DNA of 32,515 nucleotides from Microthyrium microscopicum. Taxonomy: Eukaryota. Shown in pieces: positions 1,930-23,418 of this stretch (positions are counted from its first letter, which is position 1; the number at the start of each line of letters is the position of its first letter). Location: NCBI GenBank assembly GCA_010405405.1, contig MU004231.1:4462689-4495203 (forward strand), given 5' to 3'. The notes beneath the pieces were generated by a model, which was not told the DNA's origin, did not search any database, and saw only the letters and a program-made list of their open reading frames with translations. The position numbers and the translations under genes were made by a program.

Positions 1930-2663
1930 ATGGTTTCTTCAAAGATCTTTGCCGCTGCCGCGCTTGCGAGTATCGCGTCTGCCATTGACCATCAGGTCAA
2001 GGTTGGTTCAGGCGGAAACGTTTATTCTCCTTCAACCATTCCTGGAGTTGCTGTTGGCGATACTGTCAGTTTCCAATTCCAAGGCACCGTTCACAATGTC
2101 GTTCAATCGAGTTTCTCTTCTCCATGTACACCAATGGACAATGGATTCTCTGTTCCATTCCAGTCAAGTTCCGATACCTTCACTGTCAACGTGACAACCA
2201 CCGACGCGATCTGGTTCTATTGTTCATACCAAAACCACTGCAACTTGGGTATGGTAGGAGTTATCAATCCGGGGTAAGCACCATCCGAACTATTCATTTC
2301 CATTTAGACGCGTCATTGACATGATATTAGAACTGGACAAACTCAAGGAGCCTTTGCCTCTGCTGCAAAGGGCGCGACAGTCTCTCAACCAAAGAGTAAC
2401 AGCGCGGTTGGTGGCGTTCTTGGTAGCGGTTAGTGCATCTTCTCCAGAAACTTTAAAAAGTATCCACTAAAAATATCACAGGGTCTTCTTCCGGAGCAAC
2501 AACCTCTTCCGCATCAGGTTCATCTGCTTCATCCTCAGCCTCTTCATCCATGTCAGCTTCAATGGGAATGGCAAGCTCAACAAGCTCTGGATCTGGTGCT
2601 ATCTCTACCGCCATGCCAGCAGCACTCGCGATGGTTGCTGGTCTTGCTGCTGCAGTGCTATAA
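1930..2663 (+). CDS. Secreted, probably GPI-anchored cupredoxin-domain Ser-rich protein, about 207 aa; join(1930..2273,2331..2428,2482..2663)
   Basis: Signal peptide MVSSKIFAAAALASIASA. Cupredoxin motifs VGDTVSFQF, HNVVQSSFSSPC and WFYCSYQNHCNLGMVGVIN supply His...Cys-x4-His-x4-Met type-1 Cu ligands. Introns GTAAGC..TAG (2274-2330) and GTTAGT..CAG (2429-2481) keep the frame. A Ser-rich stalk is followed by a hydrophobic tail (AMPAALAMVAGLAAAVL*) typical of a GPI signal. Confidence 0.88.
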
Positions 2664-2800
2664 GAGTTGGAAAGAATACAAACTACAATACTAGCTCGAC
2701 ATGATCCGATGCCACAATAGTTGTAGAATTATCGAGTATGAGCGCTTTGGTTACAAATTATAATTTGCGTAGTATTCTCCAATCTCTCGATACATTCTCT

Positions 2801-3045
2801 CCGCTGTCGGTGATTGAAATGAACAAAGAAGACATTGGACAAATCCGAGTGATCCGCTGGTCGGAGGTATTTTGGTATACAGACAGATGGTAAGGCCGTG
2901 CAAGGAGAAAACTAACCAGGTTTTTTTATGCAAGTCATTCAAGTCGTTGCAGGTGCACGCAGTCAGTTTGGTAGGCCGGCCGTCGGAGGCAATGGGAATA
3001 GGAATTGATGTTGTCTGATTGGTTGTTGAGAAAGACCGAAATCGG
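2801..3045. promoter_or_regulatory. Cluster of Leu3/LeuB-type Zn2Cys6 binding sites upstream of LEU1
   Basis: CCG-N4-CGG at 2801-2810 (CCGCTGTCGG) and 3036-3045 (CCGAAATCGG). CCG-N5-CGG at 2854-2864 and 2976-2986. Reverse CCAAT (ATTGG) at about 3018. All lie within 450 bp of the LEU1 ATG. Confidence 0.6.
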
Positions 3046-3244
3046 GGACAAATGCGATCTCGGAGGGGTCAAGATACATTATTTTTGTTGTCAGCCAACA
3101 TTCAAGTCAACCTTAAACATCGCCGCTTCGCCCTCATCTATTGAGCTTTTATCAAAGCTGCGGATAACTTTGTCCACAATATATAAGTTCCGCACTGGGA
3201 GTCTGCCTTCAACGCAGTTCATTACATCCTTTTGAGCATTCATC

Positions 3245-5681
3245 ATGCCTGGCATCATCAACAAGCCCCAGACTCTCTATGAGAAGGTCTTCAATGACCA
3301 TATCGTTGACGAGAGAGACGATGGCACAATCCTCCTTTATATTGGTAAGCCTTTTCTCATCTTCAATGGCAATGGAACTGATCCTATACAGACAGACATC
3401 TTGTGCACGAAGTCACGTCGCCACAAGCTTTCGAAGGACTCAAAAATGCGGGGCGCAGAGTTCGAAGACCAGATTGCACCCTAGCTACTGTCGACCACGT
3501 ATGTTCCTTATGTCCTTGTCTGTTGAGGTTTTGCTAACGAAGGCTGATTAGAACATCCCTACTTCCTCCCGAAAATCCTACAAGAGTGTCGAAACCTTTG
3601 TCGAAGAAGACGATTCCCGCACTCAATGCGTTACCCTCGAACAGAATGTCAAAGACTTTGGTCTTGTATACTTTGGCCTCGATGACAAGCGACAAGGAAT
3701 TGTGCATATCATTGGACCTGAGCAAGGCTTCACACTACCGGGCACAACTCTAGTCTGCGGCGACAGTCACACATCTACACATGGCGCCTTTGGTGCTCTT
3801 GCTTTTGGAATTGGTACTTCAGAAGTTGAACATGTTTTGGCCACACAAACACTCATCACACGGCGGAGCAAGAACATGAGAGTGCAGGTCGAAGGTGAAC
3901 TTGCACCAGGTGTCTCTAGCAAAGATGTCGTTCTTCATATCATTGGCTTGACTGGTACTGCTGGTGGTACTGGTGCTGTTATTGAATACTGCGGTTCCAC
4001 CATCAGAGCTTTAAGCATGGAGGCACGCATGTCTATCTGCAACATGTCCATTGAGGGCGGTGCTCGAGCTGGAATGATTGCTCCCGATGAGACAACATTC
4101 GAGTACCTCAAAGGCAAGCCACTTGCTCCAAAGTACGGCAGCGAGGAGTGGAACAAAGCCGTTGCATATTGGTCAAGTCTGAAAACTGATGAGGGAGCCA
4201 CCTTTGATATCGACTATCAAATCAATGCCAAGGACATTGCACCTACAGTTTCTTGGGGCAACTCTCCACAAGATGTCGTCCCAATCACTGGAGTTGTTCC
4301 AGGCCCAGAAGATTTCACAGATCCCGTGAAGAAGGAGTCGTGCGTTCGCGCCCTTGAGTATATGGGTCTCAAAGCTGGAACTCCAATGCAAGAAATTCCC
4401 ATCGACAAAGTCTTTATTGGTTCCTGCACGAATGCTCGGATGGAAGATCTCCGCATTGCTGCAAAGGTCGTCGAAGGCAAACGTGTTGCTTCAAATGTCA
4501 AGCGTGCCATGATCGTTCCCGGATCTGGTCTTGTGCGAGACCAGGCGGAAGCTGAAGGCCTTGATAAGATCTTCACCGATGCCGGTTTTGAGTGGAGAGA
4601 AGCAGGATGTTCCATGTGCCTTGGCATGAATCCAGACATCCTGGCTCCACAAGAACGATGCGCAAGCACGTCGAACCGGAATTTCGAGGGTCGCCAAGGT
4701 GCTGGTGGACGAACTCATTTGATGTCGCCCGCAATGGCAGCTGCAGCCGCAATTGTTGGCAACCTAGCAGACGTCCGAAAGGTAGCAAGTGGCCTTCAAA
4801 TTAGCGCCCATAAGAGTGGCCCCAAGGTTCAGGTTGACGCTGCTCATGCTGCTGATATCAACTCCGACTCCGACCTTGACCGCATTATGGATGCGCCAGA
4901 AGATGCACAGACAACACGCACTGCGACTCCTGGAGCCACCTCATCACCCGCCGCTGCCAGTATTCCCAAATTCACACAACTCAAAGGCTATGCCGCCCCA
5001 TTTCAGAACGGAAACATTGACACCGATGCCATCATTCCAAAACAATTCCTCAAAACCATCAAGCGCTCAGGTCTTGGTAGCGCTCTTTTCCATGCATGGC
5101 GTTACGACGCAAAAACCAACAAGGAAACGCCCGAATTTGTTCTAAACAAGGAACCATATCGAAATTCCAAGCTCTTGGTATGCACTGGCCCTAATTTTGG
5201 CTGTGGAAGTTCACGTGAACATGCTCCATGGGCTCTACTTGACTTTGGCATCAAAGCTGTCGTTGCCAGCTCCTTTGGCGACATCTTCTACAACAACATG
5301 TCAAAGAATGGCATGGTCTCTGCTATTGTCACTGATAAGGCTCAACTCCAAGCTGTCTATGACGAGGCCGCAGCTGGAAAAGAGATTGAACTAGATCTCC
5401 CAGCACAAACAATCAAGTCGGCCGACGGTAAAGAGCTTGCCAAGTTTGACATTGAGCCTTTCCTCAAGGAATGCCTTGTCAATGGCTGGGATGATATCGG
5501 TCTTACCATGCGCATGGATGACAAGATTGGCACCTATGAGAGTCGTCGTGCTCAGGCTTGGCCTTGGCTAGAGGGCAAAGCGTATCTAAAGCGCGATAAG
5601 AATGGTAATGTGAGAATTGATGCGGCGCCGGTGCCAAAGACAAATCGGGGCGATGTGATTTCGGAACCGCTGGAGTGGTAG
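3245..5681 (+). CDS. LEU1: 3-isopropylmalate dehydratase (fused large and small subunit), about 778 aa; join(3245..3344,3392..3498,3552..5681)
   Basis: Spliced N-terminus [35 protein letters not shown]. Motifs [20 protein letters not shown] and [11 protein letters not shown] (Fe-S cysteines), [12 protein letters not shown], and small-subunit [14 protein letters not shown] and [13 protein letters not shown]. Canonical introns at 3345-3391 and 3499-3551. Confidence 0.97.
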
Positions 5682-6087
5682 TGGTACTTCAAAATGGTGT
5701 TTGGTTGAGATGCAATATGTGCTACGGCCTTTTCTGTAATATGCAATTGCTAATAGCTTCTTGTCTATTAATTTATCCAGTTCTGTTAATGTTCAATAGT
5801 TCGAATATGAGACTTTCAGAATGTACTGTGATATTCATCAGCAGCTTCACATTTATCTACCAATGTTTCTAGTTCGTGAATCTTGACTTTAATGCTGCAC
5901 TTCCTAGTCAATATAGAGAGACACACGCGAGACCGCATTGCAACGCCACCGTGTCTCATGTCACTGACCAGTCTGGGTGCTTTTGAGCTTTAGTCATTCG
6001 TGGAACTTCTCGTGAAGGTTGTTGTAGTTGAGTGTGTGCAGCCTAATCGAATAATTACTGACCCGGATTCTGATAGCTTCTTCTTCT

Positions 6088-9000
6088 TTATTCCTCCGCG
6101 AATTTCTTAGGTCTATATTCTTCAATGACACTCTTCGGCTGAACATACGTTCCTAGAGGCTGATATTCGTTTGCAAAACCAAAAGCTTTTGGGCCGCCAA
6201 TTTCAACCGCACGTTCTGTGTCAACCCATCGTGGAGAGCAAGTGATACCAATGACCGTCACCCTGTACCCATATCTGAATTCCGGAACACCAAGAGCCTT
6301 TCCAGATCCATTGTCCAAAACAGCAATTAGATCTGGGACGGAAGCAATGATTTTCACCTCTCCATCGTCAGCTTCGTGTTCTGCAGTAATGATTTCGTTT
6401 TTGAATGGTAGTTTAAGCAGGCCACCATGGGCTACAGCGGCCATAAGAGGTCTTGAAGACTGGTCTTCATCTTCGATATGATCAAAAGATTTGATGTGGA
6501 CTACGCCGTAGCTATGACCTTGAGATAGCTCATTCTCCACTTGAATGATCTTGCCCCTGAAGAGTATCTTTGCTACTCCTGGTCCGCCAGCTTCTTCAAT
6601 GATCGATTCGGCAACAGATGAGATTGTGTTTGAGAAGTTACATCTCGCAATGCTACGACCTATCCGCCAAGCAAGTGAAAAAGTATTGAGAACTGCATAT
6701 TTCGTCACATCTGCTTTGTTGGTTGGCCGAGTAGCTGCACCAACTGCAGAACCCATTTCTACACACGCTGCTCTTAGGATTGAATCAACGAGCTTGTCAC
6801 TTGAAGAAGCTGTCATGATAATCGTGCTCCCGTCACCAGAGTCGATTGCACAAGGAACGAGGCGATGACTCTCGTGAGCGGCAAGAGTAGTTTGCCATGC
6901 TGTTGGATATGCGCGACCCATCCAATCACCATCAACTACTGGTACATTGAAGAAACGCGATGATCCAAGAAGTAAAGGCTCAAGACCATTTCCTCCACCA
7001 ATCTCAATCGGCATTACTGCTTGGAAATTGTCGTGACCAAGATATGCCATAAGTGCTTTCATGGCGGACACATTCTCTGTGGATTGTAGTCGTTCGACTC
7101 CAACTGCTGGTGAACCCAGTCCACCTCCACTATAGATTATATCGTCCGTCCCCAGGGCCGATGGGTCAATTATGCGCATGATATAGCCTTCGCGAAGCAT
7201 TCGAGTAAGTTGGATTTTGACCGCTGCTGGACTCCCTCCTCCAGCGCAACCGAGCACATAGCAACCATCGGCCAAGTAAGCAACGTCGGTTACACTAACA
7301 ACCCACTCGAGTCTGTCGTTTTGATAAACAACTTTCGGAGAGTAAGTGAGCGGATTTACTTCTTCGCTTTTGAGAATCGGGTCGTCTAGTCGTTGGGAGA
7401 ATCTTTCAGGCTCATCATCAATGTCATCGTCGTCTTGATCTTCCTCAAATTGAAATTGAGGGAAGCTCACACGAGTGTCAACGTCTCCAACAGCTCGGGC
7501 GATAATTCGTATCCGTTTTTCAATGTATGAGACCGGCATGGTCTCCACTTCGGTGATATGTATGCTGTTTTCTGAGGCGCCCGATTCTTTGGCTTTCTCG
7601 ATAGCCAATCGTTTCGCATGACTGATGGCTTGCTGGACAGATTGCGTGCGGGTGTCTTGTAAGATATCCACGCAACCACTAATTTGAGATATCGCGGCAC
7701 CAACAGCGTTGGCAACGTCGTAGAAAATAGGGCGGGTTAGTGAAGCTGCACCTTGTAAGGACTCTGGAGCGATGATTGCACCACCGCCGACAAGGAGGAC
7801 CGGTAAGGGATCCGGTGAAAGTTTCATAACATCCATTGCGGTCTCAAACATCTTTTTCATACTTTTTCGTGCTTCCTCAACCAAGAAGTGATCTAAATGA
7901 GAAACTTTGGATGAGTCACCAATATTGGCCATGCCAGCAGCAACAGCGATGTCAGTCGCAGTAATTGTGGTTCCACCGAATACCAATGCCTCACGTTCCA
8001 ACTCTTTACCAACGGAATCTGGTCCTACTGTCACTTTCCCATCAACATGTCTGACGATACATCCTCCCCCGAGACCGATTGAGTGAAGGTGCGGTAGGCT
8101 ATAATTGACCCGAACTCCAGGTACTATCTCAACGTAGGCAAAAGCCTGACGAGGCACGTTGGAAGAAAGAAGCACGCCAACGTCAGTAGTAGTACCTCCT
8201 ACGTCAATAACAATTGACTGTAAACCATCCAAGTTCTTTCCCGATAAATATGCTGCTCCGCGCATTGAATTTGTTGCACCAGAGCAAAAGGTGCGAATTG
8301 GAGTCTTTGCGGCGGAAGAAGCGCTCAGTCCTGTGCCATCATTTTGAGTAATAAAGATCGGGCATGTCAAGTACAATTGTCTCATAGCAAGATGAAATGC
8401 CTTGACTGTTTTGCGAGCGTACTTCAGGATCGCAGCATTCAAGATACTCGCGTTCTCCCGCTCCATGAAGCCAACATTGGCAACAGTGTGACTACAGACA
8501 ACATCTGCACCAGGGATTTCATTAAGCAATATGTCGCGAATACGATCTTCTTGCTTAAAGTCTTGGTCAATTGGGGAAAAGACTCCTGCAACCACAATGG
8601 TATTCAAGCCAAGCTCTTTGATCTTCGTGGCTTCTTGAACCACCTGCTCTTCAATGACAGATGCTTCTTCTCGCCCATCTATGTGTATTCCTCCATCGAC
8701 ATAGCCAACGTAACCTCTAATCAGTCTAGCTAGGTCTGCAGGCCACTCCGCGAACGGTGGAATTTCACGTAGGAAGGACTTGGAGACTCTGATGATTGCT
8801 ACTGGTCTCAGCCGTCGGGCATCTCTCTCAATCACAGCGTTCATGAAATGAGTTGTGCCGATGGTCACGGTCGCAACTCGAGATGGGCTGATGCTGGCTG
8901 ATTCGATAACATGTTTGACTGCGTCGGTGATACCTGTTGTCGCGTCTGGCGTGGTCGTTGTTTTCTGGTGTGCAAGGACGCCACGATGTGCAGCATTTCC

Positions 9001-9165
9001 CTTCAATGAGAGATCAACAGCCACTGCATCAGTATTCGTACCTGATTGCGTTAGTGAATATTGACATCTGGTAGCCTAACTGATAGACAAAGTAAATGGC
9101 ATGACCCCACCGACTTCGATGGCACCTACACGACACACTCTGAGATCGGGTGCTTTATCTACCAC
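6088..9165 (-). CDS. Hydantoinase/oxoprolinase-family protein fused to a C-terminal DUF917 domain, about 1000 aa; main exon 9041..6088, first exon (about 9165..9111) uncertain and possibly defective
   Basis: GTNTDAV follows the acceptor CAG (branch CACTAAC). Other motifs: VTIGTTHFMNAV, ERENASILNA, SGATNSMRGA, IVIDVGGTTTDVG, SIGLGGG, VANAVGAA. DUF917 part: GCYVLGCAGGGSP, EIGGGNG, VDGDWMGRAYP, SVPDLIAVLD. The upstream exon reads ..RVGAIEVG (compare RIGVDVGG) but has no in-frame ATG. Confidence 0.88.
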
Positions 9166-9793
9166 ATAGGGCGTTCAAGCTTGAAGAAAACCTCCCAGTA
9201 TTTAAGAGCGTTCGTGTGAGCCAGCGAAGTTGATGGGAGAACGCTAATTATTTTGTCATCTGGTCATTGTTGTGGCTTTGTTCATTCCAAACCGCACCTC
9301 CAACATCAACACCAATACGAATGGTTGCGCAATCGACTTCCATATTTGTTTTCCCCTGACAGCTTTTATTTTGATCTGTCAAACACTTTCGTGGAGGTGG
9401 TCTCCTCGCATGAACACATTGTCAGTCGAGCCAGTGACCGGTCAAACCGGCGTGTCGTGTACCGTGTGACCGGTGAGCTTAATCCGGAGGGATGCGATGC
9501 GCGATTTGGCGGGCGCCAATCAATTCCAGGAGACCGATTGACTTCTTATCATCATGTCAATATTTCAAATGTGGCCGCACAAGTGTGCCTTTCATTTTCG
9601 TTCACCTTGTTCAGGAGGCTTGTTTAATGTTCTTTCCAACCGGGAAGCATCTAGGCCACATATCAAAATTTCTGGACAAATTCTTGGGAGCATATGCATC
9701 GCAAGAGATATTGGCGAATACAACAATAAAACGTTACGCCATAAAGACTAAGCACCAAACATCCTCTACGTCTTTGGCGAGGTCGCCATCTTC

Positions 9794-11830
9794 ATGATGA
9801 GCCAAGAGCAAAAGAGTAGAGAAACCAAAGGAAGACGACGCAGCCTGTCTTTCAGTTGGATCCTGTATGGCCATATCAAGATATCATCGGTCCCCGTTCC
9901 CCTATCGTTGAAGTCATCGCACGAGTCACATTCAATAAATCAGCATCCACCCCAGCGGCCATTCCAGAACGCGCAACATGAAATCCGAATTCTTCACCTG
10001 CAGCCAGGCGAATGGTCAGAACCAATCGTCACCAAACTGGAAACAATATCCTCGCCTTATGACGTGCCTTATGAAGCGCTTTCATATACTTGGGGTAGTG
10101 CTACCGATACCAAACCAATCACTGTGGACGGATCAGAGTACCACGTTACTAGAAACCTGGAGGCTGCACTTCGTCACCTTCGTTTGACTGATGAGACACG
10201 CAAGTTGTGGTGTGATTCAGTTTGCATAAATCAGATGGACAATATTGAGAAGAGTATACAGGTGCAGAAGATGGGACACATTTTCTCTGGAGCATCCATG
10301 GTTCTCGTTTGGCTTGGAAAGTCGTATGAAAACCAAGATCAGTGGAGTCTTGACGTTGATGAAGACCTTTTAAAGAAGGCTATAGATCTTGCTTCAAATC
10401 TTAGGCAAGCTTACGACCAGTCGTTGCATGATGATCCCTTCCAGTGGGCATCTTTACTCAGGCAACGGGTACAAGATCTGCAGCTTTGTCATGCGGAAAG
10501 CAATGGTGATGGTCGTGTAACAGCCTTACTGATCAATCTGTTAGGCCGCCCATAGTGAGTGAAAGTCCTTGAGGATCGTGAACTGTAATAACGAATCAGG
10601 TTTTCTAGAGTTTGGATGATACAGGAAGCCAATCTTCATTTGAAGCCGACTGAAGTCGTTTTGGGTGGTTATTCCTCCCGTCTAGATAACTTCACACATA
10701 GTGCACATTACCTTGCGATACTGCAAGACTTCTTCGGAGATGAATATGGTCATCCAAGTCCTGATTTTCTATTCCCACCATTCTACTGGCAAGATTTGCA
10801 GTTCGTAATCAGACACCCATCATTCAAAGCTCTATCGAAAGCATATCGACTACAGGTATTGCTGTCAATGACATCGGCTTCTTTCCATTGCTCAGACCCA
10901 AGAGATCGCATTTACGCCTTACTAGGACTGTCAAATAACAAGAATAATGGGCAGAGTACAGTCACCGTAGACTATCTCAAAACCTTTCAGACCGTGGCCT
11001 TAGACACAGCAATCAGCTTGATAGAAGGTACTCAATCCTTCGCGTTGCTGTCATTTGCACCTGACACGACGCCAGGCATGCCATCGTGGGTACCAGCTTG
11101 GAATCGTCCCGTCATCTATACGCGGAAGGAGACATATTTCGATGACTACTTCGCCATTTTGACCTGTTTTCCAGGGCGCCACGCGGCTAGATTTCAACTA
11201 AGTCCTGATCGAATGACATTGTATGCAAGTGGAGTTATCTTGGGAGCTGTTGCCAGCGTAGTCAAATTACCTGATCTGACCATGCCTGACGATGATACCG
11301 TTTCGAACCGAGCGACCAAGAATATAGAGCTTATGAAACGATTTGAGGAAAGGTTATTGACAATTCCATCTTTAGCCAAATGCTTCGAATTGTCGAGAGA
11401 AGATATAAGTATTCTAGGTCATGTATTAGAGGGCACTCGATACAATTGGACGTGGGAGGAGGATGTACAAAGGTATGATGCGATCATGGATAGACTGCCT
11501 GAAGGCATGAAATCCATTTCCGAGCTCGAGATGGGCAAATATCTTGATGCACTGGCATTTGTCGCGAAAGGAGACACTATCTTCAGCACTGCTCAGCAAG
11601 ACATAGGCCGTACTCTCTTGGGTCCTGTGGGAGACTCACCTCTAGAAGCCGACTGTATTGCCCTATTCCCTGGATGTCTTCGACCTGTGCTCCTTCGACC
11701 AGTGACTGGCGGATATAGAAACCTTGGTCAATGCTACCTTCACGGCTACATGGATATGGATGAGCAAGCTGCCGTCTTTGAGAAAGCGTTGGCAGAGCAG
11801 GGAAAACTAGCCATGATAGCTCTACTATAA
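9794..11830 (+). pseudogene. HET-domain (heterokaryon incompatibility, HET-6-like) gene, join(9794..10554,10600..11830), with one in-frame TAG across the splice junction; null allele or editing/readthrough-dependent gene
   Basis: HET motifs EIRILHL, YEALSYTWG, VTRNLEAALRHLR, LWCDSVCINQ, EKSIQVQKMGHIFSGA..VLVWLG, then RP[TA|G]FSRVWMIQEA, CSDPRDRIYALLGL, PSWVPAW and C-terminal YRNLGQCYLHGYMD. Intron GTGAGT(10555)..CAG(10599). The start codon is uncertain. Confidence 0.85.
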
Positions 11831-12175
11831 TGTAGAAATACTCCAATCATAGTCTTTGTAAGCAACATTGAACTCGGCTCCTTTGGTAATTTCAGTAGAA
11901 AGTTCTAATGTATGGTGAGCCCAGCATGGTCTGCTTCATCCTGGTTTGAAATGTACTCGTCTGCGGCTTCCGCAAGTGAAGCTGGAATTGTTATTAATAT
12001 CTGATTCACCCTCTTCTAGTTGCCGCCGAATCCCTTCTGATCCTTCTTGGATCGTTCCTTGACAATTGATGTACTGCTTTATTGCTATCGGAATGCTGCC
12101 CGCAGAAAACACTTGTAATTTGGGATGAGCAAGCAAGTCGAGATGTAATTGCCCAAAAAGTCAAGTAGCTTTCTT

Positions 12176-13919
12176 TCAGCTCAAAAGCCTTCCCGCATAC
12201 TCGGCAATGGCTATCATCCTCTCCTCAGTAAATCTGCGGCCCACTATTTGAACTCCAACATGGGCGCCATCATATATCTCTGGATCATAGCCTTCAAATA
12301 CAGAGTTGTCATCATCGCTGAGAGGAGCATATCCTGGCTCATATTGATCCACCGCTTTGTCCACATGAGTAACTGGAACAGTCACGGACGTCAAATCGAG
12401 ACCATTCACCCACCCAGTAAATCCATAGTAACGATAATGGCCTGGTCTAGCAGCGGGAAAGGGAGCCACTGGAGCGATGACACCATCTACTGGACGACCT
12501 GTTCCAGTCAGAGACTCGGTGCTGTTCCAGTAATCCATATATTCTTTCTTGCATTGGCGTATTCCAACATTAACAGCTGCTATCTGAGAGGCAGTGGATT
12601 GTTCGGAAAGATCTGTTCCTAGTAGTAATTGTACTTGTGCGGATGATGGTTCTCCTGACAAGCCAAACGCTTTATCAGCATCTGCTCCACCATCAAATGT
12701 CCATGCAGAAAATGTTAAGGCGAGTATGGCTTTGTGAGATGGTGGCTTCCATTCGATGATTTTATGTCCAGCCTTTTCCAAAACCGCGACTAGCATGTTC
12801 ACCGCTCGTAGCACCGGCGGATTTGGGTTGACAACTCCATCGCCTCTCATAACCCCAAATGAGAGTTGCCCTCTCGATTTCGCATCGGTAGTGTTAACCA
12901 AGTCAGTGACTGCCTGCTCTTCAGCATCACGCCAAGGCATTTCTACAACCAAAGGATCGTGGTACCATGGTTTCTGCGATAGAAGCGATTTGACTACCAA
13001 TCTTAGCGAGCCTGCTGTGGTAGCTAGGGGCCCTACAACTGATAGCACCGAGTTTTGCCCATCAAAGGAATTTGCCATCCCTTCATATGGCAGCCGCCCA
13101 ACGGATGGACGGAGACTATATAGGCCATTGAAGACTGCGGGAATTCGGATTGATCCGCCAATGTCTGTCCCAAAACCGAGCGGTGATCCTCTCAAACTAA
13201 TCAATGCCCCTTCACCACCCGAGCTACCTCCTGAGGAAAGGTTGCGATTCTTGGGATTCCAAGTATATCCAATGATGTTGTTCACCGTCTCACCACTCAT
13301 CAAAGTATGAGGAACGCTGGTTTTGCAGTAGAGCACTGCTCCAAGGTTACGCAGTTCTCGAACCATTTCACTTTCGTAGATTTTCTGACGGGGATCATTT
13401 TTCTTGCCCTCAAAGGTGTCAATCCATCCTACGTATCCCATAGTAGTTTCGACGTCTTTGACGTGGAACAGATCTTTCAAAGACACAGGAACACCATGTA
13501 ATGGTCCAATGGGCTTCCCATGTTCTGCAAGATACTCGTCTAGTACACTGGCATCCCTCAATGCAGCATCGAAGAATGTCTCGTGAAGACAATTGACCTA
13601 GTATCCATTAACTTTGTGGCCAAAATGATCCCCGTCGTTGTCTCACTAATTGGTGTGCTAATGAAGCTCTATGGCAAAACGCTTTAGCAACCTCAACAGC
13701 GGACCACTGTCCTGTAGTTGTCTGCTTTGCAAGGCCAACTGCATCGGTTTCTGTGATCTCGATTTCCCTTGGTGTCAAAAACTGCTGGATATACGAACCT
13801 GTAACGTCTCGTTGCTCTTCGGCGTTAGGAATAGTTGATGTTATTCTCCATTTCTGAGGCAAAGAATCCAGTATGGACCTTTTCTTTGCACTAGCTTTTT
13901 CTTTCCAGTCTCGGTTCGT
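12176..13919 (-). CDS. Amidase signature family enzyme (acetamidase-like), about 564 aa; join(13919..13647,13597..12176); apparent start is ACG rather than ATG
   Basis: GPLHGVPVSLKD (catalytic Lys), GGSSGGEG and GTDIGGSIRIPA (Ser-Ser-Lys triad intact). Exon 1 WKEKASAKKRSILDSLPQKW..AFCHRASLAHQL joins VNCLHETFFDAA through a GTGAGA..TAG intron at 13646-13598. Confidence 0.9.
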
Positions 13920-15090
13920 TTTGAGGTGGATCAATTGAGCTGCGAAGAAACCGGAGAATCGCGAATATGTCTAGATACGTGCGGTTGCAAGGCTGACTGT
14001 ACCTGTTTCTAGACTGGTGCCCAACGTTGCATGACTCGGCCAGTACCCCTCGCTTTTGTTCAAGATAAGGACAGCAAGGGTAGAACGTAATAGTGGGTAC
14101 TTTATCACGAATGAAAACTTTCCAGGCTTGCCTTGTTATGCTTTCAGCGCTGCAAAGTTGTTGGCGTACTTCAGAAATCGCCTTTTCCTGAGCTCCCATC
14201 GAATGTGATGTTTGCCATAACATTTCTCAAAGAGAAGGTGTGATACTGGCCTGGAGCAACTCACTACCAGCAACAGCGCGCAAGACAAGAGGCTTGCTTT
14301 TAGTACCTTCTCAGGCGGAAATAGGCCTTGCTGATGGCGATTTGAAAGTCGTTAATGCAATTCCGCGGACACTCTCTGGTAAGTTGCTTTCATGCACAAC
14401 CGACGGACAAGATAAATGGCGCGCTCCCATCAGCTTCTTTGGCTTCACTTGCTTCATTTTCTATCGAGTGCGAAGACGCAGTTGCAAAATATTGATTAGG
14501 ATGGAAACTAGAGAGCATGATGTTCACAAGGTAGGAGGGAAGGTGGAAGACTTCGCCAATACTGTGTCCAACCATACTACAACCACGTGCCAACCACTAA
14601 GCCCGAACTCTTCAAGACCACTCAGACGTGCTCAACCGGTTGATCATAGTAAAGGCCTGGGGTGCGCGACTGGCTTGCAAAACCGAATCTTTGGACCTCA
14701 CGGAGCAAATCTACTTTCTCTCTTCTACTGAGCTGGCAAGGACTTACTATTGGTAGCGCGCCGAGATTCACAGAATACTCCCAACGCACCCAACTGGGAG
14801 ACATCGCTTTGTATGGCATAATTTCACTCATTCCAGGATGAGGTTCATGTGCTAGTTTGCTTCATATCGGATTTCAGATGGAAGCCCGGCTGCTAGTCCG
14901 CTGTTTGCGGTGGAAGAAGCAAATCGAACGGGAAGTCGCAGAGCACCCATGAGCAATAGGCCAAGCTACCTCATTGCCAAATGTCACCACCGTCGGTCTA
15001 CAACAAAATACTTCCACTACCTCATCAGTGCTACACAGAACCCTCTCAATCCCATCAAGTTACTCTCAGTCCCATCAAAATACCTTCAAA

Positions 15091-17103
15091 ATGGCTTCAG
15101 AGGACGAAGATATGCAAGATTCTCAAGCCACGCAATCCACTATTCCCGACTCTCCATTTGATCAAACGGCTCCTGGTGCCGACGACGACGAAGATGATAA
15201 CTCGGAAAGCGATGATGAGCCTCGCTCGCCACGCACATATTCAAGATTTTCGTCTTTCCAATCCGGTGCCACTGCGAATGATGAAGAGGAAAATATTCCT
15301 TTCCATGTCGAACGAGTCTGCAATCACATCGACAAGCTCACACCGCCGCAATATATACGGTTCTCGCTTCCTGGTCACGAATACGGCCTACTCCTTGAGA
15401 GCAAAGGCCTGGAGGCTGTTGCGTCGAAGATTCTTGATGATGAGATCAGTTCCGGATATTTCAAACCCGATCCGCAGTTACTGTCCAGCCTCAAATCTCT
15501 GACGTTGAGCTTTTTGACTGGCATCCACCGACCGACCTTGAAAGCGCTGATTGAAGGGGACCTCGCATATCAAGTGTTCCACAACCATGAAGTCAACAAA
15601 CGTGCGATGGAACTACGCGATCAGGTGCCAAAGCAGCTCGCTGGTATCTATCAAATCGCTCTCGTCGACAAATGCGGAGTAAGATTTCCCTTTTCCTTTG
15701 ACTACATGCCAGAGATCAAAATCTGCGATGTCCTCCAGCACATTTGATGGCTCCGATACCATGTGGATCCTCATACTAACAACAATCAGATGAGTCCTAC
15801 CGCAGCCCACCTGATAGAAGCTCATGACGTTGCTTTGCACTATACGGAACGCTCAGACGATCAAGAGCCCGAAAGATACGAGCATTTCGAAGAAATTGAC
15901 ACATACAAGCATGCAGCTTTTCCGCGGCGCGATTTAAGGTGGCGTCGATATCTCATGCATAAAGTCCAAGGTCGCTGGAAATGGAAGACAAAGCGTGTTG
16001 ATGCTTTCCGTTTGTTTCTTCACAATCTTAAGTACCTGCTGGATACTGTCCCTAATTCACACTTGGCCCAGCCATTTCCGTACCCACTGCGAGACATAGG
16101 TTATAGCAGTGATTTGGTAAGACGCGCGAAGGACCATGCAGAACACCAAAGCTCAAATGCCCTCATGTGCCTTCTTGATGCTGTAATCGCCACCACTGTC
16201 AATAACCACGTCTCAGGTTCTTTTGATGGCTCTCCATACAAGCAGATGTTTGTTGTGGTCAGCTTCATTCCTGCCACGATAATGTCTCCCCTGGCCGAAA
16301 TCGCGCTGACGCGCCTCGCTTCTGCATATTCGGAGTTCAGCGGTGTTGGTCTCAACACTCATCCAGCAGGGCGATCCGTTCCTCTTCCCAATGATCCTCC
16401 GCCAACCGATGCAATGTTCCAGCATTCATGGATGTGGGGATTCCAAAACAGCGCGATTATGAAAGAGAATATGGCCGACGACCAAATGAAAGCTAAGGCG
16501 AAGATTGACAAGCTCCAGAAAAAGTTCGCCACCCTGACGCAACAAGTCAAAGACCAAGAGATTGACCTTCTCCAATTCCACTACAACAAGGAGCACGAAG
16601 AAGCATTCAAACTCATGAAGCAAAGCGCTGGACCCTCGCTAAGACCACTCTACACGATGAGCCGAACTCTGTTTATGGAAGCCTTCCCGGAAGATTACAA
16701 CCGATACTATCACGAGGAGGTGGAGCCTGGTTTTTCATCTCCTCCACGCCTCACTCGAGCTCGAGCTCGCTCTCTGGGCTCCTCGAGCCCTACGTCATCC
16801 TTTGAGATCATAGGTCCAGTTCGCGGAGCCCAGACAGGCCTCACACAGCTCAATAGCCAAGACGATTCAGAAGCTCCCGCGCAAGCTGCTCTTCAAGCAC
16901 TTCCCCAAGCTCTCCCTCAGCAACAACCCAGTTTGGTGGTTCACCCCGTGGACCAAGTGGCATCTTCCTCTACCGCCAGTCCTTCTGCAGGTACTGCCGG
17001 CACGTCCTATCGGAGTAGAGGAATCATCCCAACACGTCCTACAGGCTGGTTTCGTGGTCGTGGTGCTGGTCGTCCTAGTGGCAGCCGTGCTAGTAGCCGC
17101 TAG
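15091..17103 (+). CDS. Orphan protein of about 633 aa with a divergent GIY-YIG nuclease-like domain, acidic N-terminus, coiled coil and low-complexity/RG-rich C-terminus; join(15091..15678,15790..17103)
   Basis: ATG in CAAAATGG context. A phase-0 intron GTAAGA..ACTAAC..CAG joins two long ORFs. Motifs GIY (15643), DIGYSSDLVRRAKDH (16093-16137), AEIALTRL (Glu 16297) and GLN (Asn 16354). The gene model is firmer than the functional call. Confidence 0.75.
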
Positions 17104-17180
17104 CAATACGACAAGCTGAACGGCCATGGTGTGATTGCTGGCGTCAAAGCTGTCCGTTGGTACAACTTGAACTGGTAATG

Positions 17181-17207
17181 GTAGCTACTTGTAGCTACTT
17201 GTAGCTA
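17181..17207 (+). repeat. Short tandem repeat (GTAGCTACTT) x2.7
   Basis: GTAGCTACTT GTAGCTACTT GTAGCTA read directly, in the 3' flank of the GIY-YIG-like gene. Confidence 0.7.
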
Positions 17208-18428
17208 GATCAAAAAGGCTGCTTTTCCAAACACATCCCTCGTAAGCTCTCTTAATTGAACAATTCAAGTCTTATCGGACTAGCAGGTCTTTTCCACCTT
17301 GCTAGTAGCTCTGGGCTGCCCAATCTGTGCTCTCTGTCATTCGCTTGGGTCGATATTCGCGGATGGGCTCTAGAAGTAACCGAAGAAAAGAACACTTGTA
17401 CACGGTTTGAATTCATGTATCAGCGTTAAATCATGACCTGCCTACCTGCAAGGAGGTCTCAGCACGAGATATATCCCAACCTGCTAGTCCCGTTTGCATT
17501 ACAGGACTCTTATACGATCTAAAGGATAAGAATCGGTTGCCCGAGCCTGCTGAAGTTACAAGGCTATGAGTATTGAAATGTTTGGTTGCTGAGACAGCCC
17601 CGTTAGCTTTTATTGAAGGTATTATCCGAGTAGTGCCAAACGGTTACCTCGCAGTCAACAACCTGTACACCTTTTACTGAATTATATTAGATGGCGCCAT
17701 GTGCGTAGTTTCAGGTCCCTAGAGCATGTAGGGAATGTCGAAGCCGTTAGTAGACGTTAGTATCATATGAAGATCCCCCTATGAGCCCGCTGGAATGCCA
17801 GATGACGCCAGTAGCAGTGCCACTGTTGGATGCTTCCATTCCTTCGCCGACTAAGTAATCCTTTTTGATGGAACTGATTTCGTGAGTTATCTACACGAAA
17901 AGCATCACCGCATTGGGAGGGCGTGATCATGTAAGCACTCCGTGTAATGCTCCGGTAACTACGAGCTCTGCCACCACACTTGATAAGAAGAATAGTCCTT
18001 CCCGTGCTTGTGAGAGTTGATATACGTTGCTGCGTGGATCTCAACAACGAGAAAAGTGTATCTTCTTTTGTTTCTGAGTGGCAGTCGCTGGTTTCGTTAT
18101 TGACGTGTGCCAAACAAAACAACTGGCGGACATATAAAGTACTTGGTTCACGCCCAAATCGTGAAACCCATCTGGACGGAAATCGCAGAGTTTGCTTCTG
18201 AGTACTCAACTGGGTCGACCTTGAGGGCCCACTAACACATCCAGCTTGGCCAATAAGCTTGAAATCTGAGGTGAAGTCTTGAAGTGAGGTTTCCCTGGCA
18301 ATCTCAACACGCCACTAGTAGTATATAACGTAGCAAACAACCTCCAGCTCAGTATTTTGGCTTCCAAACTTCTCTACTCTTCCCCAACGAGAAAAACTTG
18401 GCTCACTACGGAGTACACGCTTGCCACT

Positions 18429-21119: not shown

Positions 21120-21687
21120 GATGGGCTATACCGAGTGTGCGGAAAGAGAATGTACGACCGAGACGTTGGGTTTGAGGGAACTGAAGTTTGGCGGCCGGAT
21201 GCTAAGCGCTGGTGAAGTGATGATGCTGAGTCTTCCAACATGCCTGCTGACGAGTCCCTTTACCATATCGTGCCTGCCGGGCAAAGTTGCTAAAGGTACT
21301 GTGGTGTTGGCGGTGACTACCTACAAACTTCGCAGGAACACCTCAAGATCAAGACTAGAGGTGCCCAATTGACCGAAAAGGAACGAAGGCGCCTCAGATA
21401 TCAATAGCTGGTAGTGTTGGAGTTATATTGGGTCAGTACTCCAGGTGAACTCGTAAACACTTCATGAAGCTCTTTCCGAATCAATATATTGCCCTGTTCC
21501 AAACAGTAAGACTTGCTCCTACCTTCATAGTCAGACCGACTTATCGTTTTCACCACCTTCATTATTGGGGCTGCTTCTTTAGCAAATCCCTTCTCTCCCA
21601 TTATACCCCTTCCCTCTCACCAGACCGCTTCAGACCCATCTCTTTCCTTTCACCAGATTTACTCTCTCCATTCGGTTACTTCTTCAA

Positions 21688-23418
21688 ATGTCGAACAATC
21701 CTCCAAACGTAGGTGATATCCCTATATCTGGCGGTGGCAATCAACCACGAAACTCCTTGAGTCGATCCAAATCATTACCAATGTCGTTGCCGCCGACAGA
21801 TCTGCCTGTCCGATCAAGTAGTAAGCGACCGACAGTGACCTCGCCAACTTTTGACAAGCAAACTCCCGACAAGAAGCGCAAGAGCAATGAGGGAGGCCCG
21901 ACTCGGCAAGAGATCCCGCAATTGCTTTTACAGGGCCCGACCAGCCCTGATCGCCCCGGTGTTCCTGCTATCAGCTCCATCGACGCAGTACTTAACCAGA
22001 ATACCTATTCTCTTCGCGTTCCTGCGGCCTTTGCCCCTGGAGTTCCGACTACGGGAGCCACAGTTGGGTCACTTGGGGGTTCCTCCACACTAGATGCTCC
22101 TTCAACACCAATTCCTGGTCTTGCTGCCAGTACGTCTGTCTCTATGGATACTGACATGCCACTTGCTCCTTCTATTCCTGAAGCACAAATGAGCATCTCT
22201 CGCACTCGAGCGCAATTCAAAGCGGAAACTGCAATGGCAAATCTTCGACGTATCTTTCTACCTGACCGAAGCGCAACCAGCAAAGAAAACAAAGTCATAC
22301 TAGAAGAAGTCGCCAATGTGAGCTCTTCGCCGAATATCTTGCCAAATGGACAGGACTTGCGGAGTAAGGCATTACTTGAACTGGAGGTATATCGACAGAC
22401 ACGTAGCGTGAGAGAACGTGTCCGTGGAACTGGAGATTTCTTGTCATCGGCACATGCCTCCTCCAGTGACACCTCTTTCGTTACTCGTCAGCACTTTCCT
22501 CCCGCCGGTGGACTTTCCTCATCTGCCAGCGCTCAGAACCAGTATCATCAGCCACAATCAGATGCTTCCACTCGATTGATTGATTTGTTCGCTCCTACTC
22601 TAGCTACCACTTCGGCCACGTCTAATGTCGAATTCGATACAGGCGCAACTCCTTCCAACCGCTCCTTCTTGCAATCGCGAAACACTTTGCGATCGCCAGT
22701 GCGTCATTTATCTGTAGTCGTACCATCTCGTATACCAGCTCCAGATCCGAATTCACCGCTCACTCCTCGGACCCGTAAGTATTCCGTAGCAATCAACTCC
22801 TCCTTTACTGACATAACTTCAGCATACGGATCTATGCGCGCGATTCAAGGCCTCGCAGCTTCCAAGCTTGGCATCCAATCTTCGGACGATCAAGACGTCG
22901 CTGCTCCCCCCGCTGACCCCACTCCTCCTATCGTTCTGAATAATCCGGATACTCTGGCTGTTGTTGCTGCTTCTCCTGCTCGTTGGAAGAACCTGCCCGC
23001 AATGCCCACACCACCCATGAACTACCCTCTACCCGTTCGGTTCATCCTTGACGCATACACACTTGCTCTGGATAGAATGGCCATAACGCAAGGAAAGGCC
23101 AAAAAGACCAAAGGCGATTCATCTAGCACCATAGCACCTACTCAAATTCCCGCATGCGCCTTCAGTTACCTGAAGAAGACTAGTCAGCCTGGCTGGGAGA
23201 CAGCCACTGCCGGTGAGGAATACATCACTCGGTGTGATTATTGTCGAGGAAATGGGAAGGACCCAAAAGCCAATGCTCTATGCGCGCAGCGATCAGGCAA
23301 TCAATGGTTCGTTAGACGTCACGAGAACAGCACTGGCTCGCCAACAGATGACAGCTACTATATAGGTGACGGAGTGAACAAGTATCCTCCTGCTCCTTCA
23401 GGTCTCGGCCGTAGATAG
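21688..23418 (+). CDS. Orphan Ser/Pro/Thr-rich, largely disordered protein (576 aa) with a basic NLS-like motif and a C-terminal Cys cluster
   Basis: Long uninterrupted ORF with ATG in TCAAATGT context after a pyrimidine-rich leader. PDKKRKS is NLS-like. C...RCDYC-x12-C lies near the C-terminus. Divergent from the 21119 gene. Confidence 0.75.
   Translation: MSNNPPNVGDIPISGGGNQPRNSLSRSKSLPMSLPPTDLPVRSSSKRPTVTSPTFDKQTPDKKRKSNEGGPTRQEIPQLLLQGPTSPDRPGVPAISSIDAVLNQNTYSLRVPAAFAPGVPTTGATVGSLGGSSTLDAPSTPIPGLAASTSVSMDTDMPLAPSIPEAQMSISRTRAQFKAETAMANLRRIFLPDRSATSKENKVILEEVANVSSSPNILPNGQDLRSKALLELEVYRQTRSVRERVRGTGDFLSSAHASSSDTSFVTRQHFPPAGGLSSSASAQNQYHQPQSDASTRLIDLFAPTLATTSATSNVEFDTGATPSNRSFLQSRNTLRSPVRHLSVVVPSRIPAPDPNSPLTPRTRKYSVAINSSFTDITSAYGSMRAIQGLAASKLGIQSSDDQDVAAPPADPTPPIVLNNPDTLAVVAASPARWKNLPAMPTPPMNYPLPVRFILDAYTLALDRMAITQGKAKKTKGDSSSTIAPTQIPACAFSYLKKTSQPGWETATAGEEYITRCDYCRGNGKDPKANALCAQRSGNQWFVRRHENSTGSPTDDSYYIGDGVNKYPPAPSGLGRR

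Follow-up and report, generated by a model that had tools for sequence, protein, structure and literature searches.

A single UAG across a splice junction interrupts the HET domain of a transcribed gene in Microthyrium microscopicum

The window analyzed here, a stretch of 32,515 nt from the genome of the dothideomycete Microthyrium microscopicum, carries on its forward strand a HET-domain gene whose reading frame is broken by one stop codon. The stop is shared between the two exons, and the gene and the splice sites around it are laid out as follows:

9794-11830, forward strand: HET-domain gene of 663 codons plus a terminal TAA (11828-11830), with a single intron
9794-10554, forward strand: exon 1, starting ATG ATG, with 253 full codons and then the TA of the split codon 254
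10540-10545, forward strand: weak alternative donor GTTAGG, which with the acceptor at 10599 gives an open frame of 658 codons that lacks L-G-R-P and the stop
10553-10554, forward strand: T and A of the stop codon, whose third base G is 10600 in the spliced message or 10555 upon intron retention
10555-10599, forward strand: the only intron of the gene, 45 nt (a multiple of three), GTGAGT...AATCAG, phase 2
10555-10701, forward strand: 147-nt intron of the public gene model, a joint that the RNA contig does not have
10600-11830, forward strand: exon 2, which opens with the last base (G) of codon 254 and runs through 409 codons to the TAA at 11828-11830
10601-10627, forward strand: FSRVWMIQE, directly 3' of the stop codon and forming the RxWxxQE block of the HET domain

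When translated with X at the stops, the gene matches the Pfam HET family (PF06985) over the complete profile (positions 1-146 of 146) with 93.0 bits against a cut-off of 22.5. Exon 1 alone scores 93.6 bits (E 1.9e-26) over profile positions 1-96 of 146 and carries the first two conserved blocks, YEALSYTWG and LWCDSVCINQ. Exon 2 contributes the third block and a C-terminal region of about 390 amino acids that has no Pfam match; a search with 10601-11827 returned no family. The assignment as a HET gene in the preliminary description is thus borne out by a full-profile match that spans the break and by the presence of all three blocks. The domain is interrupted, because the spliced message has UAG at codon 254 of 663 and is therefore not one continuous complete HET coding sequence. 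In the spliced CDS this TAG is the sole internal stop. The exon ends, the 45-nt intron, the codon split as TA/G, and the HET motif had been described correctly in every detail. Retention of the intron, also said to leave a stop, produces TAG TGA ... TAA TAA, which amounts to four in-frame stops. The next acceptor (10608) had been expected to create TAA, and in agreement with this the pair is missing among the 46 GT..AG pairs that restore an open frame in our enumeration. The gene had further been considered free of other lesions. Indeed, both exons are open, and the translation aligns to the intact 626-aa protein P0021 over 95% of the query.

In an alignment of 119 homologues, the column of the stop holds W in 77 proteins, Y in 35, L in 4, and A, V, and R in one each, the single R being the intron-derived start of P0022. 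Tryptophan is the commonest residue, as the earlier wording of a conserved Trp implied, but given the share of tyrosine the position is better regarded as aromatic. In the adjacent block the same homologues have F or W (65 and 54, respectively), R (119), W (119), Q (118), and E (119), and the window gene keeps all R, W, Q, and E of this RxWxxQE block. Its closest full-length relatives, P0021 and P0023, read ...LINLLGRPW-F-[GS]-RVWMIQEAN, and both have W at the stop column. Since relatives carry W here, one G>A transition accounts for the stop. Among random one-step nonsense changes in the CDS, a TGG>TAG change has a chance of 0.05-0.11, depending on a transition:transversion weight of 1 to 4. 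Two sister proteins, P0022 and P0141, come from a lineage with 68% identity; both start within intron sequence, and the junction codon lies outside both models. In P0141, 18 in-frame intron-derived residues precede FSRVW, which places an intron at the corresponding position in the sister lineage. A comparison of exon 1 with representative proteins yielded only P0021 and P0241 as close matches among the best 150 of 45,257; P0241 (116 aa) ends with ...LINLLG, short of the stop position, apparently at a contig end. A metagenome scan for orthologue DNA found seven loci with 23-36% identity and no orthologue, a word-index search for longer proteins gave 19 distant matches (best identity 27%), and the last 101 residues of exon 1 had no match among proteins of 55-177 aa.

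Assembled reads document the transcript. A 15,843-nt contig of run X5 matches 9600-10554 and 10600-12000 without any differing letter. Its joint, 10554>10600, skips exactly the 45 nt with GT..AG borders and is the sole joint observed, in one contig; X5 is taken as RNA-type from this missing intron. A DNA contig of run X3, likely from the source sample, crosses the 45 nt with no differences and no joint. Both contigs read A at 10554, the base that would have to change for any editing. As the spliced X5 contig keeps this A, the message carries UAG, and its perfect match over 9600-12000 indicates that the abundant transcript is unedited and spliced without avoidance of the stop; X5 represents one consensus from a probably vegetative sample, and contigs mask minority variants and rare isoforms. 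The stop-bearing mRNA was abundant enough for contig assembly. Position 10554 falls outside the pieces from two further runs. In X6, identical pieces cover 10023-10501 and 11043-11265 at a depth of 2-3.2, and in X7 a 219-nt contig at 10778-10996 (depth 2.4) derives from a 97%-identical relative.

The public protein of this locus, P0020 (629 aa, M. microscopicum), is letter for letter the translation of 9794-10554 joined to 10702-11830. The 147-nt intron of this model skips the stop (GRP-Y-AHYLAIL) but drops 34 codons, including FSRVWMIQE. P0020 is a stop-avoiding gene model and not the product of the observed mRNA. Automatic gene models often contain artefactual introns of this kind.

Apart from the stop, the gene looks well preserved. 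The consensus residue is present at 58 of 63 strongly conserved family columns. Unique changes number 20 in the window gene vs 12 in the sister P0141 (p 0.22), so that its branch is not significantly longer, and a relative-rate comparison with P0021 alone as outgroup gives 28 vs 28. The 219-nt X7 contig differs from the window at six sites, five synonymous and one non-synonymous; at most one non-synonymous change among six differences has a probability of 0.003 under neutrality. Signs of an old pseudogene, namely several lesions, lost conserved residues, and an accelerated branch, were not found, and the lesion is a single one. If the gene is a pseudogene, this lack of decay implies that it is a young one. 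The intact downstream sequence fits a very recent lesion and equally well a gene that is still in use. The remark that the underlying change is of the RIP type gains nothing from base composition: with TpA/ApT of 0.65 and (CpA+TpG)/(ApC+GpT) of 1.36, the gene has, by commonly used thresholds, no RIP-like dinucleotide bias and resembles the remainder of the window, where the two values are 0.70 and 1.30.

The best reading of these data is that a recent TGG>TAG change turned the gene into a null allele or pseudogene, which we regard as probable. One nonsense substitution at codon 254, in the simplest case TGG to TAG, would have inactivated the HET gene of this dothideomycete. The gene is still transcribed and its 45-nt intron is removed correctly, resulting in an mRNA with UAG two residues ahead of the invariant Arg of the RxWxxQE block. 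Translation should end once 253 residues have been joined, and the product, without the invariant R, W, and E and without the 409-residue C-terminal part, is presumably inert. Because the rest of the gene has not decayed, the lesion would be young or strain-specific. In sum, we infer an ancestral TGG codon, an inactive truncated product, and no recoding. Turnover in HET families is rapid, and many of their alleles are inactive. In Podospora anserina the family comprises 128 genes according to the available part of a preprint (bioRxiv 10.1101/2024.12.09.627484).

Three other explanations would let a longer protein be made from the same locus. A minor isoform could be spliced around the stop, either with the 147-nt intron or by joining the GTTAGG donor to the normal acceptor, and encode 629 or 658 codons. 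Both pairs are among the 46 frame-restoring ones, the 147-nt intron was the choice of the annotators, and rare isoforms can be hidden in contigs. Against this, the X5 contig has the 45-nt joint only and neither alternative joint. The 147-nt splice also removes the R, W, and E that all 119 homologues have without exception, and its product would not be a working HET domain. The other splice loses L-G-R-P-W, where R and P are majority residues (80 and 58 of 119), and GTTAGG deviates from the usual fungal donor consensus. Bypass of the stop by splicing is accordingly rated as highly unlikely. Programmed readthrough of UAG by a near-cognate tRNA, which would supply a low level of full-length protein, appears more improbable again and hardly credible. 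It would be in line with the intact and apparently constrained reading frame 3' of the stop. Contexts known to promote readthrough include CARYYA after UAG and CUA after UGA, and the UUU UCU AGA that follows the stop here fits neither of these. Moreover, the stop lies inside a conserved catalytic block, unlike the sites of known readthrough extensions.

The third is restorative A-to-I editing, in which A 10554 would be deaminated at some stage (in fruiting bodies, upon virus infection, or under stress), so that ribosomes decode UAG as UGG and produce the complete HET protein at that stage alone. In ordinary hyphae the stop in the genome would hold a dangerous cell-death effector in check. The stop, a UAG in a W/Y column whose A is preceded by U, has the form that fungal editing restores, and A>I would yield Trp, the residue of 77 homologues and of both close full-length relatives. 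A random nonsense change takes this form in only the small fraction of cases given above, the ORF is otherwise intact without detectable relaxation, and the transcript is present and spliced. A review from 2024 describes, in the portion covered, a preference of fungal A-to-I editing for U at -1 and hairpin loops, with UAG a frequent target (PMC11156358). In Fusarium graminearum, 71 stop-interrupted genes with conserved stops are reported to be restored by editing in the covered part of the source (PMC10776026), and for Neurospora the accessible text on OLD-ZAO describes UAG>UIG editing in virus-infected hyphae that releases a harmful regulator (PMC12754623). A weak point is that the sole RNA-type consensus, X5, reads A at 10554, although this speaks only weakly against editing because contigs hide minority variants and X5 is one sample of unspecified stage. 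The organism is also a dothideomycete. The same review, in its covered portion, assigns sexual editing of this kind to Sordariomycetes and Pyronema and states that none was identified in Aspergillus nidulans and Botrytis cinerea (PMC11156358). Another study, in the part covered, describes the interaction of Ame1 with Tad3, on which mRNA editing depends, as having evolved in Sordariomycetes (PMC11087585), and a cofactor interaction reported as an innovation of that class stands against editing in a dothideomycete. Since the sources covered report no sexual A-to-I mRNA editing for the class of M. microscopicum, the lineage argues against this explanation. Three papers mention both A-to-I mRNA editing and Dothideomycetes. 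In structures predicted with flanks of 15-30 nt, a weak 5-nt hairpin loop contains A 10554, whereas with flanks of 40 nt the base is paired. Of the 98 UA adenosines of the same mRNA, 34 lie in hairpin loops, and 10554 ranks 57th of 98 by unpaired probability, so the loop prediction does not favor it over other UA sites. No Pfam deaminase (E<=0.001) was detected in the two neighbours and 30 further ORFs of the 63 listed with at least 90 aa, a screen that short exons could escape; a deaminase of the OTT_1508 type or any other was thus not found beside the gene. A search for a comparable stop at two more same-frame ORF pairs of the window (3168/3552 and 14953/15748) led in each case to a stop in what looks like an ordinary intron. 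No report joining A-to-I editing with HET domains was found in the literature searched. In the Fusarium study (PMC10776026), HET or heterokaryon is absent from the main text and one supplementary file, and incompatibility and NACHT have no occurrence in that file. The differentially expressed HET genes of Podospora mostly decrease during sexual development in the available part of the preprint (bioRxiv 10.1101/2024.12.09.627484), which would make an "on" switch at the sexual stage biologically odd. Taken together, editing of A 10554 is unlikely, and the fuller proposal, in which a TIR-like HET effector of a dothideomycete is kept off by a splice-straddling UAG and restored to Trp by editing under particular conditions (fruiting, virus, or non-self contact), is slightly less likely still. 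The editing interpretation put forward in the preliminary description gains no positive support from these data; the TGG>TAG null allele, named there as the simpler alternative, is better supported.

If the null allele is the correct reading, its value is mainly corrective, because the stop-avoiding intron then makes the deposited protein an artefact, and what the true message encodes is a HET protein cut short. The locus would also be a further case of rapid turnover in fungal cell-death gene families. If editing were true, mRNA recoding would occur outside the lineages where it is known, in a new fungal class, and would be tied to the control of a self-destructive immune or cell-death module.

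Like the 535 homologues found at E<=0.001, the window gene combines an N-terminal HET domain with a long C-terminal region, but its C-terminal 409 residues belong to no Pfam family whereas most homologues have PF26639. The gene may have a role in incompatibility. The genes beside it encode a hydantoinase/S-Me-THD fusion and an amidase, and no incompatibility partner was recognizable there. HET domains have been proposed to be TIR-like in the covered part of a review (PMC12881547), and no enzymatic activity of any HET domain is reported in the portion of the literature covered. A Foldseek search of the PDB with the 626-residue P0021 model gave no match at E<=0.001. Residues ~53-289 of this model align weakly to 19 chains with TIR or ThsB titles among the best 50 rows; the best structural match, 4w8h_A, has Z 5.8 (rmsd 3.4, 94 residues aligned), and all Z values are below 8, a range common for unrelated arrangements. 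The structural neighbours of the model, TIR domains and nucleoside 2-deoxyribosyltransferases, would suggest a weak likeness, in line with the TIR proposal. The known HET-domain proteins used for comparison, HET-6, TOL, and PIN-C of Neurospora and HET-E/-D/-R/-B of Podospora, are uninterrupted, whereas the window gene has UAG inside the domain.

With the premature-stop-corrected (PSC) genes of F. graminearum and Neurospora (PUK1, AMD1, and the 71 PSC pseudogenes), the gene shares a lone UAG that replaces Trp and has U ahead of its A, in an otherwise intact and transcribed ORF; were editing to take place, it would operate in the same manner. It differs from them in that no A>G was observed in the one consensus and in its lineage, for which mRNA editing is not known from the parts of the sources covered; the text and one supplementary file on the Fusarium PSC genes do not mention the HET family either. 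OLD-ZAO of Neurospora crassa and CHE1 of Fusarium provide, in the available portions of the sources, the same concept of a harmful defence protein that is held off by a genomic UAG and freed by UAG>UIG. OLD-ZAO has an adjacent OTT_1508-like deaminase gene, which was not found in the window ORFs tested, and its target is a zinc-finger transcription factor, whereas here the UAG interrupts a HET-domain protein.

The UAG that interrupts the HET-domain (PF06985) gene at 9794-11830, hereafter HET gene, probably reflects a TGG>TAG null allele, recent or confined to the strain, in a large, fast-turning-over cell-death family, transcribed and spliced, and masked in the annotation by an unsupported 147-nt intron. 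The gene is organized as follows.

9794-10554, + strand: exon 1, with an ATG ATG start and the end ...CGC CCA TA
10555-10599, + strand: intron of 45 bases, GTGAGT...AATCAG
10600-11830, + strand: exon 2, starting G TTT TCT AGA GTT TGG ATG ATA CAG GAA, with TAA at 11828-11830

The spliced CDS has 663 codons, and the TAG at codon 254 is its sole internal stop, in agreement with the single lesion in about 660 codons of the preliminary description. The exon ends, the 45-nt intron and the stop split as TA/G also are as claimed there, judged by sequence, frame and an RNA-type exon joint. Stops had further been claimed for two splicing variants, and both are present in the sequence: intron retention yields in-frame TAG, TGA, TAA, and TAA, and the next acceptor (intron end 10608) turns the split codon into TAA. 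The assignment to the HET family holds as well. Exon 1 alone matches positions 1-96 of the 146-position Pfam HET profile (E 1.9e-26), and the read-through translation, with X at stops, matches the full profile (1-146/146) across the break with 93 bits versus a cut-off of 22.5.

Seven public runs contain the stretch, and four were compared over 9600-12000. In the DNA run X3, from which the assembly may derive, one contig passes through this entire interval with 0 differences and thus agrees with the window at A 10554, the base that editing would have to change. In X5, whose RNA status ("RNA?") is a guess, one 15,843-nt contig agrees with the window at every letter of 9600-10554 and 10600-12000. 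Its sole joint connects 10554 to 10600, skips 45 nt with GT..AG borders, and is missing in X3. An intron absent here but present in DNA has the look of cDNA, so the abundant message is spliced as predicted in the preliminary description, and it reads A at 10554, that is, UAG. This A is the consensus of one contig from a sample of unstated growth stage, in which minority edited or differently spliced molecules would not show. By record coordinates the X5 contig spans about 2300-18300 and must cover several nearby genes in both orientations, so its depth is uninformative on the HET gene alone; this span points to transcripts that overlap or to some carried-over DNA in the run. The contigs of X6 and X7 lie outside the site.

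The best database match, P0020 (629 aa; hypothetical protein, Microthyrium microscopicum), is identical letter for letter to the translation of 9794-10554 plus 10702-11830. It thus assumes a different intron:

10555-10701, + strand: 147-nt intron of the P0020 model, with the real donor and an acceptor 102 nt downstream of 10599

In this model the split codon becomes TAT, and 34 codons are gone, from FSRVWMIQE on. The joint was not seen in the RNA-type X5 contig, which is one consensus contig. P0020 is a stop-avoiding model: built with an unsupported intron, the entry conceals the premature stop and is without the RxWxxQE block.

PMC12881547 describes HET domains as the cell-death modules found in NLR-like proteins and in proteins of fungal incompatibility, and a distant kinship with TIR domains is proposed; overexpression of the domain by itself is reported there to suffice for killing. 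The intact relative P0021 (626 aa) was modelled from a 75-sequence alignment (mean pLDDT 86.5, pTM 0.89). Foldseek with this model returned nothing at E<=0.001. A wide structural search placed residues about 53-289 near 19 TIR/ThsB-titled chains among the 50 matches listed, the best TIR match listed being 4w8h_A (Z 5.8, rmsd 3.4, 94 aligned), with nucleoside deoxyribosyltransferases also among the matches listed. Every Z is below 8, so that support for a TIR likeness of the modelled HET region is weak. In the model the stop falls at residue 219, well inside the TIR-like region and ahead of the invariant R222, W224, and E228. A 253-residue product would have an incomplete domain core and none of the C-terminal half, and would presumably be inactive.

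The preliminary description placed the stop at a conserved Trp. W is indeed the commonest residue in the column immediately preceding the block's F/W (77 of 119 aligned homologues), but Y occurs in 35 and other residues in seven (L 4, A, V, and R 1 each); the lone R belongs to the sister-lineage protein P0022, which starts with residues translated from the intron. The columns that follow are far stricter: F 65 or W 54, then R 119/119, W 119/119, Q 118/119, and E 119/119. Both closest full-length relatives, P0021 (about 50% identical) and P0023 (a 469-aa fragment), read ...LINLLGRPW-F-[GS]-RVWMIQEAN, so the ancestral codon very probably was TGG, from which one G>A transition would give TAG. The sister proteins both start inside the intron, P0022 with MVLHR directly before FSRVW and P0141 with 18 in-frame residues ahead of it; the intron thus lies at the same place, and the junction codon is not revealed. 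Among the best 150 of 45,257 matches in a representatives search, only P0021 and P0241 are close, and P0241, a 116-aa exon-1 fragment, breaks off at ...LINLLG, short of the orthologous codon and apparently at a contig end. A metagenome scan gave seven loci, all distant and none an orthologue, and a search among proteins of 55-177 aa found no exon-1 fragments; a sister's exon-1-only ORF would fall at 178-371 aa, outside this scope.

As far as is measurable, the HET gene is not decaying. The window keeps the consensus residue in 58 of the 63 family columns with a conservation of 80% or more. In exon 2, compared with the 68%-identical sister P0141/P0022, it has 20 unique changes versus 12 with P0021 and P0023 as outgroups (p 0.22), and 28 versus 28 with P0021 alone. 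A 219-nt X7 contig (depth 2.4) from a 97%-identical relative has six differences 3' of the stop, five synonymous and one N>S (P 0.003 under neutrality for <=1 non-synonymous in 6; 50.7 synonymous and 168.3 non-synonymous sites). None of the three comparisons detected relaxed selection, so the part downstream of the stop was under purifying selection until recently. Since the relative's contig covers only 10778-10996, this fits a null allele of recent origin and a gene still in use equally well. The RIP-type origin suggested for the TAG is not indicated, as the dinucleotide indices of the gene (0.65, 1.36) match those of the whole window (0.70, 1.30).

Forty-six GT..AG pairs restore an open frame, the pair ending at 10608 not among them. 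In four of the 46 the acceptor is the normal one, which preserves the RxWxxQE block in full, and only one of these four costs few residues (GTTAGG at 10540, 60-nt intron, 658 codons), but this donor is poor and was not seen in the X5 consensus. To our knowledge, UUU UCU AGA after the stop fits none of the known readthrough motifs. Restoration by A-to-I editing of the UAG, which we regard as improbable, can draw on the lack of decay and on a stop of the right form. TGG>TAG makes up 5-11% of the one-step nonsense changes possible in the CDS, depending on transition weight, and the "editable" form is mildly informative (likelihood ratio roughly 10), weakened as evidence because the window had been selected for exactly this form. 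The U at -1 follows from the codon itself. A 10554 is predicted in a weak 5-nt hairpin loop of the spliced mRNA at flanks of 15, 20, and 30 nt, paired at 40 nt, and in a 5-nt loop of the pre-mRNA at all four flanks; since 34 of the 98 UA adenosines in the same mRNA lie in predicted hairpin loops and A 10554 ranks 57th for unpaired probability, structure gives no discrimination. No positive evidence for editing was found, and the lineage as well as the gene family argue against it. M. microscopicum is a Dothideomycete (order Microthyriales). Genome-wide sexual A-to-I editing is reported in Fusarium, Neurospora, Sordaria, and Pyronema; none was detected in cleistothecia of Aspergillus nidulans or apothecia of Botrytis cinerea, and its distribution among classes is still to be established (PMC11156358). 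The Ame1-Tad3 interaction is described as arising in Sordariomycetes and, probably independently, in Pezizomycetes (PMC11087585). Fusarium has 71 stop-interrupted genes with conserved stops, and the available text and one supplement file of that study do not mention HET or heterokaryon (PMC10776026). Our literature search found no paper uniting A-to-I RNA editing with the HET domain and heterokaryon incompatibility. Of the 128 HET genes of Podospora, 59 are reported to shift expression in sexual development, most of those downward (bioRxiv 10.1101/2024.12.09.627484), which makes a sexual-stage "on" switch unintuitive. We thus favour the null allele.

Elsewhere in the window the following features were found.

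10895-10929: 35-nt stretch (within codons 354-365, ...PRDRIYALLGL...) matching other X3, X5, and X6 contigs with 4 mismatches and unlike flanks
6088-9075, - strand: 995-aa uninterrupted ORF, upstream neighbour, hydantoinase/oxoprolinase domains (Hydant_A_N, Hydantoinase_A) fused to S-Me-THD N- and C-terminal domains
12176-13597, - strand: 473-aa ORF, convergent downstream neighbour, full-length Amidase match (E 3.9e-92)
14953-17103, + strand: two same-frame ORFs (264 and 451 aa) with TGA between, no Pfam family, partly acidic/low-complexity
21583-23418, + strand: 611-aa open frame, no Pfam match at E<=0.001
3499-3551: 53-nt intron of an aconitase-family gene (3552-5678 plus upstream exon), GTATGT...GCTAAC...TAG

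The contigs matching 10895-10929 probably carry HET paralogues from the same genome; one paralogue, on an X5 (RNA-type) contig of 1,627 nt, may be transcribed. The TGA in 14953-17103 looks like part of an ordinary intron (roughly 15687-15789, ACTAAC branch site). The stop between the two aconitase-family ORFs was rejected as premature, as it lies in the ordinary intron 3499-3551.

Profiling of 30 further ORFs of at least 90 aa (63 listed) recovered no deaminase family in the window. The HET gene thereby differs from the Neurospora antiviral module OLD-ZAO, whose defining neighbour is a deaminase gene and in which, according to a commentary, UAG is edited to UIG in virus-infected hyphae and a harmful regulator is freed (PMC12754623).
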